From Gammaproteobacteria bacterium (lineage in GTDB: Bacteria; Pseudomonadota; Gammaproteobacteria; Eutrophobiales; Eutrophobiaceae): a stretch of 64,000 bases of DNA. Below are positions 14,350 through 22,928 of the stretch, in pieces. Both the position numbers and the translations under genes were made by a program. Position 1 is the stretch's first letter; each line of letters opens with the position of its first letter. The notes beneath the pieces are model-generated. The model was not told the DNA's origin. It worked only from the letters and a program-made list of their open reading frames with translations, and ran no database searches. The stretch covers positions 2,240,001-2,304,000 of the forward strand of contig CBDEUK010000002.1 in the NCBI GenBank assembly GCA_965243205.1, given 5' to 3'.

Positions 14350-14553
14350 ATGTTAATTTTAACTAGAAGAGTTGGCGAATCGTTGATGATTGGCGATGAT
14401 GTCAATGTTACCGTTCTAGGTATACGTGGTAACCAAGTCAGAATTGGTGTTAATGCACCAAAAGAAGTTTCTGTACACCGCGAAGAAATTTACGAGCGTA
14501 TACAACAAGAAAAGAGCGGCAATGCACCATCGTCTCAAGACGAACAAGAGTAA
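14350..14553 (+). CDS. csrA: carbon storage regulator CsrA/RsmA
   Basis: [17 protein letters not shown]...VHREEIY. Confidence 0.99.
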
Positions 14554-14751
14554 TTAATATCAAGATATTTTTTTAAAAAAAGGATTTTTCTTGTTTAAAC
14601 AAAGCAAAATTTATTGCATTGCATGTGCACGTTAGTAAGGTTGCTATTTAAGCATGCAATATCATAAGTGTAGTTATCTATACCCTTAAATTTTTATTAT
14701 TGTCCTACTTTTTCTAGACTTTCAATGATCTAAAGATAAAATAAAACAAAC

Positions 14752-14875
14752 GGAGAGGTGGCCGACAATTTTGTCAGGAACAAAATTGGACATTTGAGCA
14801 AAGCGAAAATGGTACGAAGTACCGAAGCTCAGGATGAGCTGAGTCAACGGCTGAAGGTAATCGACGAAGTCGATT
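14752..14875 (+). other. truncated tRNA-Ser 5' duplicate with a structured CAGGA-hairpin insert in the D-loop
   Basis: GGAGAGGTGGCCGA [82-nt insert] CGGCTGAAGG matches the 5' end of the downstream tRNA-Ser; ends in the hairpin AATCGAC-GAA-GTCGATT. Confidence 0.85.
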
Positions 14876-14920
14876 TTAAGAGTAAGCTAAACAATATAAT
14901 ATTTTAATAATATATATAAC

Positions 14921-15012
14921 GGAGAGGTGGCCGAGCGGCTGAAGGCGCTCCCCTGCTAAGGGAGTATACGGTTTATCCCGTATCGAGGGTTCGAATCCCT
15001 CTCTCTCCGCCA
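14921..15012 (+). tRNA. tRNA-Ser(GCT)
   Basis: Cloverleaf with anticodon arm CTCCC-ctGCTaa-GGGAG, long variable arm, GGTTCGAATCC and encoded CCA. Confidence 0.97.
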
Positions 15013-15058
15013 TTTGACTATCTCGATCAAATCTATATTATTCGCCGTTCTTAATTAC

Positions 15059-15152
15059 GCGCCCGTAGCTCAGTGGACGACGTGCAGGAGCACAAGTGTC
15101 GCGAGAGGCAGGACGCCGATAGCGACGAGAGTACCGCAACACGAAGTGTTGC
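15059..15152 (+). other. truncated tRNA-Arg 5' duplicate with a structured CAGGA-hairpin insert in the D-loop
   Basis: GCGCCCGTAGCTCAG-TGGA [50-nt insert] AGAGTACC matches the 5' end of tRNA-Arg; ends in the hairpin GCAACAC-GAA-GTGTTGC. Confidence 0.85.
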
Positions 15153-15197
15153 TTAGATAGAACTTAAGTAAGTAACAATTTATACTTTTCATATAAC

Positions 15198-15274
15198 GCG
15201 CCCGTAGCTCAGCTGGATAGAGTACCTGGCTACGAACTAGGGGGTCGGAGGTTCGAATCCTTCCGGGCGCGCCA
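15198..15274 (+). tRNA. tRNA-Arg(ACG)
   Basis: 77-nt cloverleaf with ctACGaa anticodon loop, GGTTCGAATCC and CCA. Confidence 0.97.
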
Positions 15275-15283
15275 TTTAAAATA

Positions 15284-15305
15284 GCCACCTATCAGGTGGT
15301 TTTTT
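15284..15305 (+). terminator. intrinsic terminator after the tRNA cluster
   Basis: GCCACCT-atc-AGGTGGT followed by a T tract. Confidence 0.8.
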
Positions 15306-20894: not shown

Positions 20895-22928
20895 TTAGAA
20901 AAGATATTTAACTTGAAAACGTAACATTCTTGGCTCAATTGGATGGAAGTGTCTATCTTCAATACCTGCTGCAGGCTCTCCGTTTAAACGAGAAGCATAA
21001 AAGTATTCGATATCACTATCATTGCTGTCGAATATATTTAATACATCTAATCCAAACTGCCAATTATCCGGTTTGTAATCAACACCAAGATTTACCACGG
21101 TAAGTGGATCGGATTCTACTTGACCAAAACTATCCAATGGCCGTTCACCAAAGTGTCTTACGCGCACGGTAGTACTCCAATCAGTGTACGGAGACCAAGT
21201 GAAACCAGTACTTAGCACGAATGGTAAGGAACCTTGAATTTCATTACCTTCACCCACAGCATCTTCAGAAAATTCTGACTCAGTCCAAGCGAGTTCAAAA
21301 TCCACACTGAAATCTTTACCTAACCAATAATACGCAGCTAATTCAAGACCATAACGTTCTGAGGAGCGACTGGCTTCGGTATTACCCGCATCACCGACAA
21401 ATAATAATTCAGAATCCAATTGTAAGTACCATAATGCAAGAGAGATATTGAAATGATTCGGATCGAAATAACGGATACCGATTTCTGTTCCTTCCCCACG
21501 AACTAATAAATCAACAGGATCGGTTGGATTACCTGAGCTTGGATCAACTGAGATCGTAGAACCACGTGCGTCGTTAGAATGAAATGATTGGCCCGCGTTG
21601 AAGTAAGTTTCCCAATCTTCGTCAATGGTGTAGCGCAAGCCAGCATTGAAACTGACTAAACTATCATCTGCATCACCACTATTCGCAGCCAAGTTACTAT
21701 CGACTTCTGCAGAGAGATAATCGTAACGCACACCTATTGTTGAAGCTAACTTCTGGGTTAGAGCAATTTCAGTTTCCCAAAACAAGCCAACCGAATATTC
21801 ATCAACACTATCTTGTCTAACAGTACTTAAGCGTTGGCGATTTCGTGTGCGATTTAAAGCAACTTCGTCAATTTCATCATAACGAAATTGAACACCGTAA
21901 TAATGTTGAACAGGTAAGTTTAATAGTGAATGATTCATGTAATGACTGACATCACCACCGTAGATCATACGATCATCTACTTGCTCGAATTGGTCACCAT
22001 TCACAGGGTCGTCTAAGAAATAGGTAAAGTTTGAAAATAGATCTAATTGAGAGTGAATGGCATAAGCATTAACTGTCCAGCCTGAATATTGCCAACTACC
22101 AGATACACTGTAACGTTCAGAATCACCACCAACGGTAGTATCAAGTGAACCTAATTCTGAGATTAATCCGCTATCAACCGCACGTTGAGGAATTTGATCT
22201 GCAGAATTCCATTCATTGTTGTACGCCATAAAGGTTAAAGAAAGTTTGCCTTTGGACAGAGATTTATTCCACCGCGCTAAACCATTAAATTTTTTCACGC
22301 CTTCTTCGATATCATCCCAAGGACCATCATAGAAATGCGACTCTATGCCAAGTAACAATTCACTATCTTCTAATTCAAAACTCTTTCCCGCCACATTACG
22401 AAAAAAATTATATTCACCAATTTCTGATGATATAAATGCATTATCTAGCCTGTTCATTAAAAAGAAATCAGCAGCACCGGCTGTTGAGAAGTCTCCATTC
22501 TCACTGTGGTAAGGTCCTTTTTGATAATCAATGCGATCTATGAATTCGGGAATAATAAAATTAAGGTCGGTATAGCCTTGACCATGACCATGTGTACGCA
22601 TATTAATCGGCATCCCATCAATGGTGGTTCTAAAATCAGTTCCATGATCTAAATTAAACCCACGTAAAAAATACTGATTGGCTTTGCCAGAACCACTGTG
22701 TTGGGTCACTACCATGCCAGGAATAAACTCTAATATTTCGCCAGAACGTAACAAGGGCCGATTTTCAATTTCATTACGACCAATGATGCCCTCTGACGCT
22801 GTAACCGCTTCTCCAATTAAATTAGTTTCATGACCCACAATCACAACTTCATCCAACTCCGCTGAGTGAGCGTGTACATTACTTGATATGCAAGTTGTAG
22901 TGACCAATAACATGGCTTTTTTAATCAT
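20895..22928 (-). CDS. TonB-dependent receptor with a His-rich plug, probably for a transition metal
   Basis: QHSGSGKANQYFLRGFNLDHGTD and THGHGQGY plug motifs, HFHPIEPR, terminal Phe. Confidence 0.9.
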   Translation of the reverse strand: MIKKAMLLVTTTCISSNVHAHSAELDEVVIVGHETNLIGEAVTASEGIIGRNEIENRPLLRSGEILEFIPGMVVTQHSGSGKANQYFLRGFNLDHGTDFRTTIDGMPINMRTHGHGQGYTDLNFIIPEFIDRIDYQKGPYHSENGDFSTAGAADFFLMNRLDNAFISSEIGEYNFFRNVAGKSFELEDSELLLGIESHFYDGPWDDIEEGVKKFNGLARWNKSLSKGKLSLTFMAYNNEWNSADQIPQRAVDSGLISELGSLDTTVGGDSERYSVSGSWQYSGWTVNAYAIHSQLDLFSNFTYFLDDPVNGDQFEQVDDRMIYGGDVSHYMNHSLLNLPVQHYYGVQFRYDEIDEVALNRTRNRQRLSTVRQDSVDEYSVGLFWETEIALTQKLASTIGVRYDYLSAEVDSNLAANSGDADDSLVSFNAGLRYTIDEDWETYFNAGQSFHSNDARGSTISVDPSSGNPTDPVDLLVRGEGTEIGIRYFDPNHFNISLALWYLQLDSELLFVGDAGNTEASRSSERYGLELAAYYWLGKDFSVDFELAWTESEFSEDAVGEGNEIQGSLPFVLSTGFTWSPYTDWSTTVRVRHFGERPLDSFGQVESDPLTVVNLGVDYKPDNWQFGLDVLNIFDSNDSDIEYFYASRLNGEPAAGIEDRHFHPIEPRMLRFQVKYLF

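Follow-up and report, generated by a model that had tools for sequence, protein, structure and literature searches.

The DNA analysed here (the window) is a stretch of 64,000 nucleotides (nt) from a gammaproteobacterial genome (contig CBDEUK010000002.1, positions 2,240,001 to 2,304,000), and coordinates given without a prefix are positions in it. The element under study, at 14752-14875 (the Ser unit), lies between csrA and an intact tRNA-Ser(GCT) gene. It consists of a partial 5' copy of that tRNA, split in its D-loop by an 82-nt insert of four hairpins, and of a fifth hairpin. Sequence comparison makes the insert a member of a large unannotated gammaproteobacterial family of 72-90-nt modules, to which the core of the Escherichia coli small RNAs (sRNAs) RrA, RrB and RrF also belongs. 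By homology with these sRNAs, we consider it moderately probable that 14752-14875 is a structured RNA domain in the 5' leader of tRNA-Ser(GCT) that titrates CsrA and is driven by the tRNA promoter. The region keeps the conserved gene order recA, recX, alaS, aspartokinase and csrA, with tRNA-Ser(GCT) and tRNA-Arg(ACG) behind it, and the following features were located there.

14350-14553, plus strand: csrA, 67 amino acids (aa), directly 5' of the element (Pfam CsrA, E 1.9e-27)
14715-14742, plus strand: promoter-like site TAGACT-16-TAAAAT (consensus scan, 9/12 matches)
14752-14765, plus strand: copy of tRNA-Ser(GCT) positions 1-14 (acceptor 5' strand, U8, D-stem 5' strand, A14), identical to 14921-14934
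14766-14847, plus strand: 82-nt insert, a four-hairpin module of RrB type (covariance model R1, folds, covariation)
14848-14857, plus strand: copy of the remaining tRNA-Ser D-loop with the D-stem 3' strand, identical to 14936-14945
14859-14875, plus strand: fifth hairpin, a 7-bp stem with a GAA triloop and TTTT after it (RNA and DNA folds)
14921-15012, plus strand: intact tRNA-Ser(GCT) (ARAGORN; Rfam tRNA, 55.6 bits)
15014-15041, plus strand: promoter-like site TTGACT-16-TATTAT, 5' of the partial tRNA-Arg copy (consensus scan, 10/12 matches)
15059-15163, plus strand: tRNA-Arg 5' copy with a type B insert, the second element (sequence comparison, fold, genome-wide scan for tRNA ends)
15198-15274, plus strand: intact tRNA-Arg(ACG) (ARAGORN, Rfam)
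15283-15301, plus strand: intrinsic terminator after tRNA-Arg(ACG) (terminator scan)

The consensus scan thus placed promoter-like sites ahead of both tRNA fragments and reported none directly 5' of the intact tRNA-Ser or tRNA-Arg. As a consensus match only, the first site would put the transcription start at about 14749-14751, just 5' of the tRNA-Ser copy. On the plus strand, the terminator scan predicted no terminator-like site between the csrA stop codon and 14752. An inverted repeat with 7-bp arms about 28 nt apart (14606-14660) lies between csrA and the promoter-like site. The source genome also has a second csrA-like gene, on a 460-kb replicon (C1:26511-26693), with 74% identity over 61 aa to the csrA of the window.

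Structure of the split tRNA-Ser(GCT) copy

The original prediction, made from the letters of the window, had described a 5' copy of tRNA-Ser(GCT) whose D-loop is interrupted by an 82-nt insert of four hairpins. This was borne out by exact matches of 14 and 10 nt to the intact gene, with one D-loop G absent between the copied parts; the copy was also recovered by a genome-wide scan for 13-nt tRNA ends. Folding reproduced the four hairpins, namely H1 (14766-14788, loop CAGGA with GGA at 14777-14779), H2 (14792-14810), H3 (14811-14823, GAA triloop) and H4 (14826-14840, GGA at 14832-14834), with a tail at 14841-14847, and revealed the fifth hairpin in addition. The RNA fold of 14752-14880, which had been proposed as a check, had an energy of -35.5 kcal/mol and a z-score of -3.62, and none of 200 shuffled sequences folded as well. 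The two GGA motifs of the insert were both exposed in hairpin loops (H1 and H4) in the RNA and in the single-stranded DNA (ssDNA) folds. In both the minimum-free-energy and the centroid fold, the D-stem copy (14760-14764) paired with 14848-14852 and closed the four-hairpin junction. The fifth hairpin stands in the place of the anticodon arm and may be a weak terminator-like or processing hairpin, a tentative assignment from the fold; the terminator scan made no call there.

We considered whether the arrangement could be an assembly artefact, or else a tRNA that is split or has an intron in its D-loop, as both flanks of the insert match the tRNA exactly. However, no T-arm, anticodon arm or 3' acceptor strand was found after the D-arm copy and before the intact tRNA-Ser(GCT), which starts 45 nt after the fifth hairpin. 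ARAGORN called no tRNA at 14752-14880, and Rfam gave none there even at E<=10. The original statement that this is not an intron-bearing tRNA therefore holds. Contigs of the Logan assemblies from four runs of one sample contained csrA, the fragment, the insert and the spacer into the intact tRNA with 0 differences; a 62-kb contig spans 14300-14957 and a 20.6-kb contig extends to 14966, and 15040-15187 had no Logan contig cover. The sample is probably the source sample, hence these contigs represent a second assembler and not independent data. The same arrangement also occurs in other genomes. Taken together, an artefact, an intron or a split tRNA appears extremely improbable.

The insert shares a module family with the core of RrA, RrB and RrF

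The layout of the family, with CNGGA as the loop of H1 and CANGGAUG as that of H4, was derived from 148 unique copies. A module starts with GA, followed by H1 (9 bp, loop C-N-G-G-A) and a purine-A-C linker. H2 and H3 are short stems with mostly C-GNA-G loops, the stem of H4 varies freely around the loop context C-A-N-G-G-A-U-G, and a GA-containing tail ends the module. The covariance model R1 was seeded on 55 copies; it has 79 model positions and models H1, H3 and H4 plus the linker and tail. In the window, R1 matched 14764-14850 over model positions 1-79 with 60.3 bits (E 6.7e-13).

RrB was absent from the seed alignment. In E. coli K-12 (NC_000913.3), R1 matched 4171837-4171916 over all 79 model positions with 60.9 bits (E 2e-15). 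This match sits between the rrnB terminators T1 and T2, in the spacer that encodes RrB. The order there is T1, a partial copy of the 5S 3' part, the module after GA inside that copy, the 3'-terminal letters of 5S, and T2. The Ser insert and the RrA/RrB/RrF core thus share one module family, with two GGA-loop hairpins and, as the closing helix of the Ser insert, the duplicated D-stem. The Ser unit is set apart from orthologues of rrA, rrB and rrF because it lies 5' of tRNA-Ser and 3' of csrA and not between dual terminators after 5S.

According to Stenum et al. (2021; PMC8144298), E. coli has 22 tRNA-linked repeats (TLRs), and rrA, rrB and rrF are three of them. All three are described there as transcribed by read-through of T1, processed to about 115 nt and short-lived, with peak abundance in exponential growth, and RrB as co-transcribed with rRNA. 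In an MS2 pull-down of RrB, CsrA ranked first by enrichment, and electrophoretic mobility shift assays gave a KD of about 100 nM for CsrA with RrB and showed GGA-dependent binding of RrB-short; binding was lost in a mutant with three single-stranded GGA changed to UUU, both loop motifs included. The parts of the paper we draw on report homologues only downstream of 5S in Enterobacteriales, give a CsrA-binding score below 0.01 for the 19 TLRs of tRNA operons in E. coli, and note that the rrnB T1-T2 terminator of many vectors carries the RrB module.

The module was found well beyond these sites. R1 gave 115 matches in 95 sources and matched in 81 of 151 sampled Xanthomonadales genomes. Hairpin 1 was found again in relatives: its exact IUPAC pattern occurred in 47 of 126 genomes of the source family (reversed control, 0) and in at least 119 stretches of a species-genome collection. 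Among the matches listed, the genera were Citrobacter, Klebsiella, Serratia, Xenorhabdus, Pectobacterium, Hafnia, Vibrio, Rheinheimera, Arsukibacterium, Rhodanobacter and Dokdonella, along with many metagenome-assembled genomes. Rfam had no family over the module, either in the window (14540-15300, E<=10) or in 20 loci; a TwoAYGGAY match at one of the loci (L095) was on the opposite strand, beside the module. In literature on the module letters, T-loop miniature inverted-repeat elements, ERIC (enterobacterial repetitive intergenic consensus) insertions, CsrA with mobile repeats and tRNA-linked repeats, we found no published description of the wider family. That applies to its spread over Gammaproteobacteria, to its hosts and to its apparent insertion into loops of spare stable-RNA copies.

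Two other sRNAs were examined as candidate members and set aside. At the RttR locus of E. coli K-12, R1 matched nothing at E<=0.1 when run unfiltered. For RsmU of Xanthomonas, placed in the comEA 3' untranslated region in the part of PMC7694677 used here, the comEA 3' regions of two Rhodanobacter genomes showed nothing alike, and R1 found nothing at E<0.5 in 30 Xanthomonadales comEA loci, the comparison being by locus and not by RsmU sequence.

Conservation and covariation of the hairpins in relatives, to which the original prediction had tied its reading, were both present. In the four closest copies, all five hairpins and the closing stem were kept, and 14 of 36 pairs had changed on both sides. 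Across 115 copies, 96.5% of cells paired versus 77.5% after shuffling, a value that none of 500 shuffles reached, and 16 of 17 pairs had changed on both sides; this alignment was fitted to the R1 model, which biases it toward the structure. Slid controls of the same alignment paired at 29-50%. An independent MAFFT/RNAalifold alignment of 55 copies gave double changes in 10 of 17 pairs. The closing helix was kept in relatives (alignment columns 10-12 with 106-108), and the fifth hairpin had compensatory changes in four relatives. These results show that the structure of the module is under selection. GGA was present in the H4 loop of 107 of the 115 copies, and H4 lies outside every search pattern; the corresponding figure for the H1 loop (114/115) is inflated, most loci having been found with a pattern that contains GGAA.

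Hosts and mobility of the module

The module was nearly always enclosed by a host helix. Among the 148 unique copies, 26 lay in the T-loop of a 3' tRNA fragment (Ser, Thr, Arg, others) after an intact tRNA and a terminator; tRNA-Pro cases (TTCA junction) were binned as 'other' by the automatic sort. The same sort placed seven copies in the D-loop of a 5' tRNA fragment, and more were recognised by eye. About 20 copies were hosted by ERIC repeats, two mis-sorted rows being set aside, in Citrobacter, Klebsiella, Serratia, Xenorhabdus, Pectobacterium and Vibrio. Further hosts were other local hairpin repeats and the 5S 3' end of partial copies. Of 5426 complete E. coli genomes, 618 have a copy hosted by ERIC, and the matches listed overlap no annotated feature; in E. 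coli O157:H7 (NZ_AP018488.1, 153601-153702) it is in the sense orientation about 50 nt 3' of panC, between panC and rpnC.

In the source genome (2.79 Mb), R1 found two clear copies, at tRNA-Ser and tRNA-Thr, and no match at the rrn operons. The second copy (C2:664035-664126; R1 at 664045-664125) interrupts the T-loop of a tRNA-Thr(CGT) 3' copy that retains 17 nt of the tRNA 3' end; the intact tRNA-Thr(CGT) and a hairpin precede it, and a strong terminator follows. A weak R1 match at 21867-21946 of the window (20.8 bits, E 0.07) has an H1-like hairpin without GGA; it may sit within a coding region and was taken as chance. Three further tRNA-derived sequences were noted in passing. At a csrA locus of a relative (L059, G085:C190), a near full-length extra tRNA-Ser(GCT) 3' of csrA has the module in its D-loop and a long composite insert in its T-loop, with the start of the next tRNA-Ser at the contig end. 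The source genome also has stray copies of the tRNA-Met 3' end at C2:66476-66488, which includes the T-arm, as a remnant of an integration site would, and at C2:93866-93878, which is preceded by unrelated structured sequence.

A number of observations weigh against a CsrA-titrating leader RNA, and several of them concern mobility. For six of the 148 unique copies, the sort gave an antisense insertion in a T-loop, which is not expressible with the host RNA. One of the six (L194, G015:C51:9921-10196) sits in the T-loop of a full-length duplicate of tRNA-Lys(TTT), in tandem with the intact tRNA-Lys(TTT) and with the downstream spacer duplicated too; this resembles a first step toward a fragment that carries a module. 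Another genome (G065) has a tandem array of up to 20 near-identical 72-bp units (G065:C1:1947645-1949035), bordered by what resembles a degenerate module of opposite orientation, and the array has the look of a nested insertion. Such arrays, the nested and antisense insertions and the patchy copy numbers resemble selfish or mobile DNA. Moreover, both strands fold equally well, the ssDNA z-scores are more extreme than those of RNA, and wobble pairs show no strand bias (15 G-U versus 13 A-C, one G-U pair excepted). The Logan runs that hold the locus are metagenome contigs of one sample, with no RNA run among them, and the adjacency to csrA may merely follow from the conserved csrA-serV-argV gene order. 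Three points of the same kind concern the RNA itself. The sequence of H1 is more conserved than CsrA recognition should require, with little variation between orders at six of the nine stem pairs; this points to another partner or to recent spread. The 3' elements after tRNA-Ser in two genomes (L274 in G014, L267 in G138) have no GGA in H1 or H4 and retain the four-hairpin layout in a T-loop copy, with only 14-26 bits under R1. Deletion of rrA, rrB and rrF and over-expression of rrB gave modest phenotypes in the same direction (PMC8144298).

Tandem arrays were also present in a second genome (G078:C3, around 2323468-2324210 and 2120410-2120792). The 72-bp spacing of H1 in G065 and G078 had made a CRISPR array a candidate, which was rejected as these are whole-unit tandem repeats without spacers.

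The Ser unit could accordingly be a relic of selfish DNA, a non-autonomous element that targets GA in hairpin loops of DNA, inserts behind it and has here left a neutral trace in a defunct tRNA duplicate. The mobility machinery would then use its hairpins and GGA loops as ssDNA, with tRNA D- and T-arms, the 5S end, ERIC repeats and its own copies as hosts. The insertion in both orientations into many unrelated hosts fits this explanation, as do the 5' flank, which nearly always ends in GA, the arrays, one of them inside an antisense degenerate copy, and the contrast between 64 exact H1-pattern matches in G065, the most of any genome, and none in 12 of 23 genomes of that genus. H1 is near-identical over Enterobacterales, Xanthomonadales and the source family, and C-GNA-G triloops are frequent. 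Such triloops are very stable as DNA. The remark on triloops in the original prediction was apt in this respect, since they recur in H2 and H3 of the family and the ssDNA fold of the Ser unit has a z-score of -6.56 compared with -3.62 for RNA. However, no transposase was found, and Y1/HUH matches, present in 15 of the 23 genomes of that genus and absent from G065, did not track copy number. No clear target duplication or terminal inverted repeat was evident at the module junctions, where the 5' GA and the GA-containing 3' tail were seen, and a non-exhaustive search found no autonomous form. The copy near csrA is kept in eight genera with compensatory changes, the homologue in E. coli is expressed and processed as RNA and binds CsrA in a GGA-dependent manner, and the unrelated type B module converges on the same loops and host context. 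We therefore regard a purely selfish relic as rather unlikely. Mobility and RNA function are compatible, and both mobility and CsrA binding may be true.

The original prediction had also raised recognition at the DNA level, as a repetitive extragenic palindromic (REP)-like element read as ssDNA by a REP-associated tyrosine transposase (RAYT) or another HUH enzyme. The stable GNA-triloop hairpins and the strong ssDNA z-score would suit such an element, and the source genome has one Y1_Tnp-like open reading frame (ORF; C2:173028-173360), with a weak match of 49 bits. In contrast, BLASTN of the unit and of the insert found a single match in the source genome, so there is no REP-like multiplicity, and neither of the two clear R1 copies lies beside this ORF. 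ORFs of this type are common in relatives whatever the copy number of the module, and G065, with the most copies, has no Y1_Tnp match. The 82-nt unit also has four different hairpins and is not a palindrome of 20-40 nt. The REP/RAYT explanation, which largely fails the copy-number and co-occurrence comparisons, is very unlikely.

A different role for the RNA would leave CsrA incidental: the module could be a folding, stability or processing signal of the tRNA precursor (RNase E, RNase P, Hfq) or present a protein site in the H1 stem. RrB also binds Hfq weakly and is processed, and its repeat of the 5S end was proposed as an RNase E signal (PMC8144298). The conservation of the H1 stem well past the loop, the GGA-less variants that retain the architecture and the modest CsrA-related phenotypes in E. 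coli agree with such a role. On the other hand, GGA in 107 of 115 H4 loops stands in the full C-A-N-G-G-A-U-G context, the top protein in the RrB pull-down was CsrA and not Hfq, and the 3'-end repeat, the proposed RNase E signal, is missing from the 5' copy studied here. We consider a role other than CsrA binding unlikely.

A predicted CsrA-binding tRNA leader and known systems

In the favoured mechanism, transcription would start from the promoter-like site at 14715-14742, perhaps with a contribution from csrA read-through. The transcript would pass the module and then either stop at the weak hairpin at 14859-14875 or run into the tRNA; on the latter route, RNase P would free the leader by cutting where the tRNA begins. 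The free leader is predicted to bind one CsrA dimer across the GGA loops of H1 and H4, and the level of free CsrA would thereby be tied to the activity of a stable-RNA promoter. CsrA binding and co-synthesis with stable RNA were shown for the E. coli homologue RrB; binding of CsrA and co-synthesis with the tRNA are predicted here by homology. We count the original claim of a structured unit that acts at the RNA level as right, with a function assigned by homology. The Ser unit is, judged by sequence, the 5'-tRNA-linked counterpart of the RrA/RrB/RrF-type tRNA-linked-repeat sRNAs. As to its origin, the module would have entered a redundant tandem tRNA copy after the GA of the D-loop, and the remainder of that copy would have decayed. 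The build of the E. coli 5S copy, with the module after GA and a stable-RNA end after it, matches the arrangement of the tRNA copy here.

The leader of tRNA-Arg would carry a second, unrelated two-GGA module of the same design. The tRNA-Arg 5' copy (15059-15077) is followed by the type B insert (15078-15152) and a D-arm remnant (15153-15163). The insert has GGA loops at 15087-15089 and 15111-15113 and a hairpin with a GAA triloop at 15136-15152; it is unrelated to the Ser insert and shares with it two GGA loops, a GNA hairpin and a tRNA 5' copy as host. Its own sequence folds with a z-score of only -1.1. Type B relatives were found in 39 of 126 family genomes, and of the 10 loci read, eight lay directly in tRNA-Arg 5' copies and two had extra sequence. 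Five relatives (G012, G015, G042, G060, G089) have gained a separate GGA loop in the hairpin that follows the Ser module. The convergence of type B and the gain of GGA after the Ser module raise confidence in CsrA binding.

The association with csrA was seen in several genera. A module in a 5' tRNA-Ser(GCT) copy 3' of csrA was present in eight genera (G000, G095, G015, G060, G089, G012, G085, G086), and in the complete genome G060 the module at csrA/tRNA-Ser is the only R1 match. This retention and the lone match in G060 raise confidence in a CsrA-directed leader. Of the 47 pattern-positive genomes, only four have an exact H1 match next to csrA. R1 matched beside csrA at 11 of 20 loci, which were chosen partly in the knowledge that the genomes carry modules, and further genomes were chosen after the fact. 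The csrA-locus samples are non-random, and none of these figures makes a fair test.

Confidence is also raised by the lack of an Rfam match to CsrB, RsmY or RsmZ at the gathering score in the source genome. These models gave no match in 14540-15300 at E<=10. Crude scans of the source genome for GGA-hairpin clusters and ANGGA returned mostly coding regions and no CsrB-like locus, and a scan for consensus boxes of GacA/UvrY and LetA type followed by GGA-rich sequence found none, nor did these motifs reveal an activator box upstream of the Ser unit. A separate site on the minus strand (C2:1432452-1432537) has two small GGA-loop hairpins before a terminator, after a gene with a glycine/methionine-rich tail; one hairpin resembles the first hairpin of type B, and the site has a sub-threshold RsmY match (25.8 bits).

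With this reading, an odd half tRNA becomes a regulatory RNA with an experimentally studied homologue. The account of RrA, RrB and RrF is widened too, from three rrn-linked sRNAs confined to Enterobacteriales in the print sources we draw on to a range that takes in the source family, more than half of the sampled Xanthomonadales genomes and many other gammaproteobacterial genera. Coupling of CsrA availability to stable-RNA synthesis as a general principle is suggested. We put forward only tentatively the broader idea that the module is a self-contained mobile CsrA-binding cassette, spreading as DNA into loops of stable-RNA copies, ERIC repeats and its own copies, by which Gammaproteobacteria, enterics, Xanthomonadales and the source lineage among them, would repeatedly have wired free CsrA to the activity of stable-RNA promoters. 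If so, csrA-serV-argV would be an ancient unit in which csrA stands beside its own growth-rate-coupled decoys. The question raised is by which route an 80-nt cassette enters tRNA loops in both orientations.

Among known DNA elements, REP/RAYT and IS200/IS605-type elements resemble the module in being hairpin-rich, intergenic and apparently inserted at the DNA level. The module differs from them in its low copy number here, the lack of a linked HUH gene and its four distinct hairpins with conserved GGA loops. Long variants of ERIC, also called intergenic repeat units (IRU), with internal insertions of roughly 70 bp were reportedly described by Sharp and Leach in 1996 and by Wilson and Sharp in 2006; to our knowledge, the ERIC insert was not linked there to CsrA or RrB. 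In the ERIC copies found here, the insert is the module, with an ERIC hairpin as host instead of a tRNA copy.

Among CsrA-binding RNAs, CsrB, CsrC, RsmY and RsmZ share with the Ser unit GGA in hairpin loops and a presumed role as CsrA decoys. They have no sequence or Rfam relationship to it and carry 9-22 sites, compared with two in the Ser unit, which is apparently driven by a stable-RNA promoter and not by an activated promoter of the BarA/UvrY type. 3'ETS-leuZ of E. coli is a by-product of a tRNA precursor that acts as a sponge, as is proposed for the Ser unit; it lies 3' of the tRNA and sponges sRNAs by base-pairing (Lalaouna 2015, as cited in PMC8144298), whereas the Ser unit lies 5' of the tRNA and would sponge a protein.

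The TLRs of E. coli, including RttR, consist like the Ser unit of a partial repeat of a tRNA end beside the intact gene in the same operon (PMC8144298). Their hallmark is a 3'-end repeat downstream of the gene, whereas the Ser unit has a 5'-end repeat (14 + 10 nt) upstream; the copy after tRNA-Thr(CGT) in the source genome has the classical TLR layout. The closest likeness in structure is to RrA, RrB and RrF, which have the same four-hairpin core, with nearly equal R1 scores, and the same two GGA loops. In both cases the module stands after GA in a partial copy of a neighbouring stable RNA and, as predicted for the Ser unit, within a stable-RNA transcription unit. RrA, RrB and RrF lie 3' of 5S between two terminators and end in an 18-bp repeat of the 5S 3' end, whereas the Ser unit lies 5' of a tRNA and beside csrA, embedded in repeated 5'-end and D-arm sequence of that tRNA, in a distant, AT-rich gammaproteobacterium.

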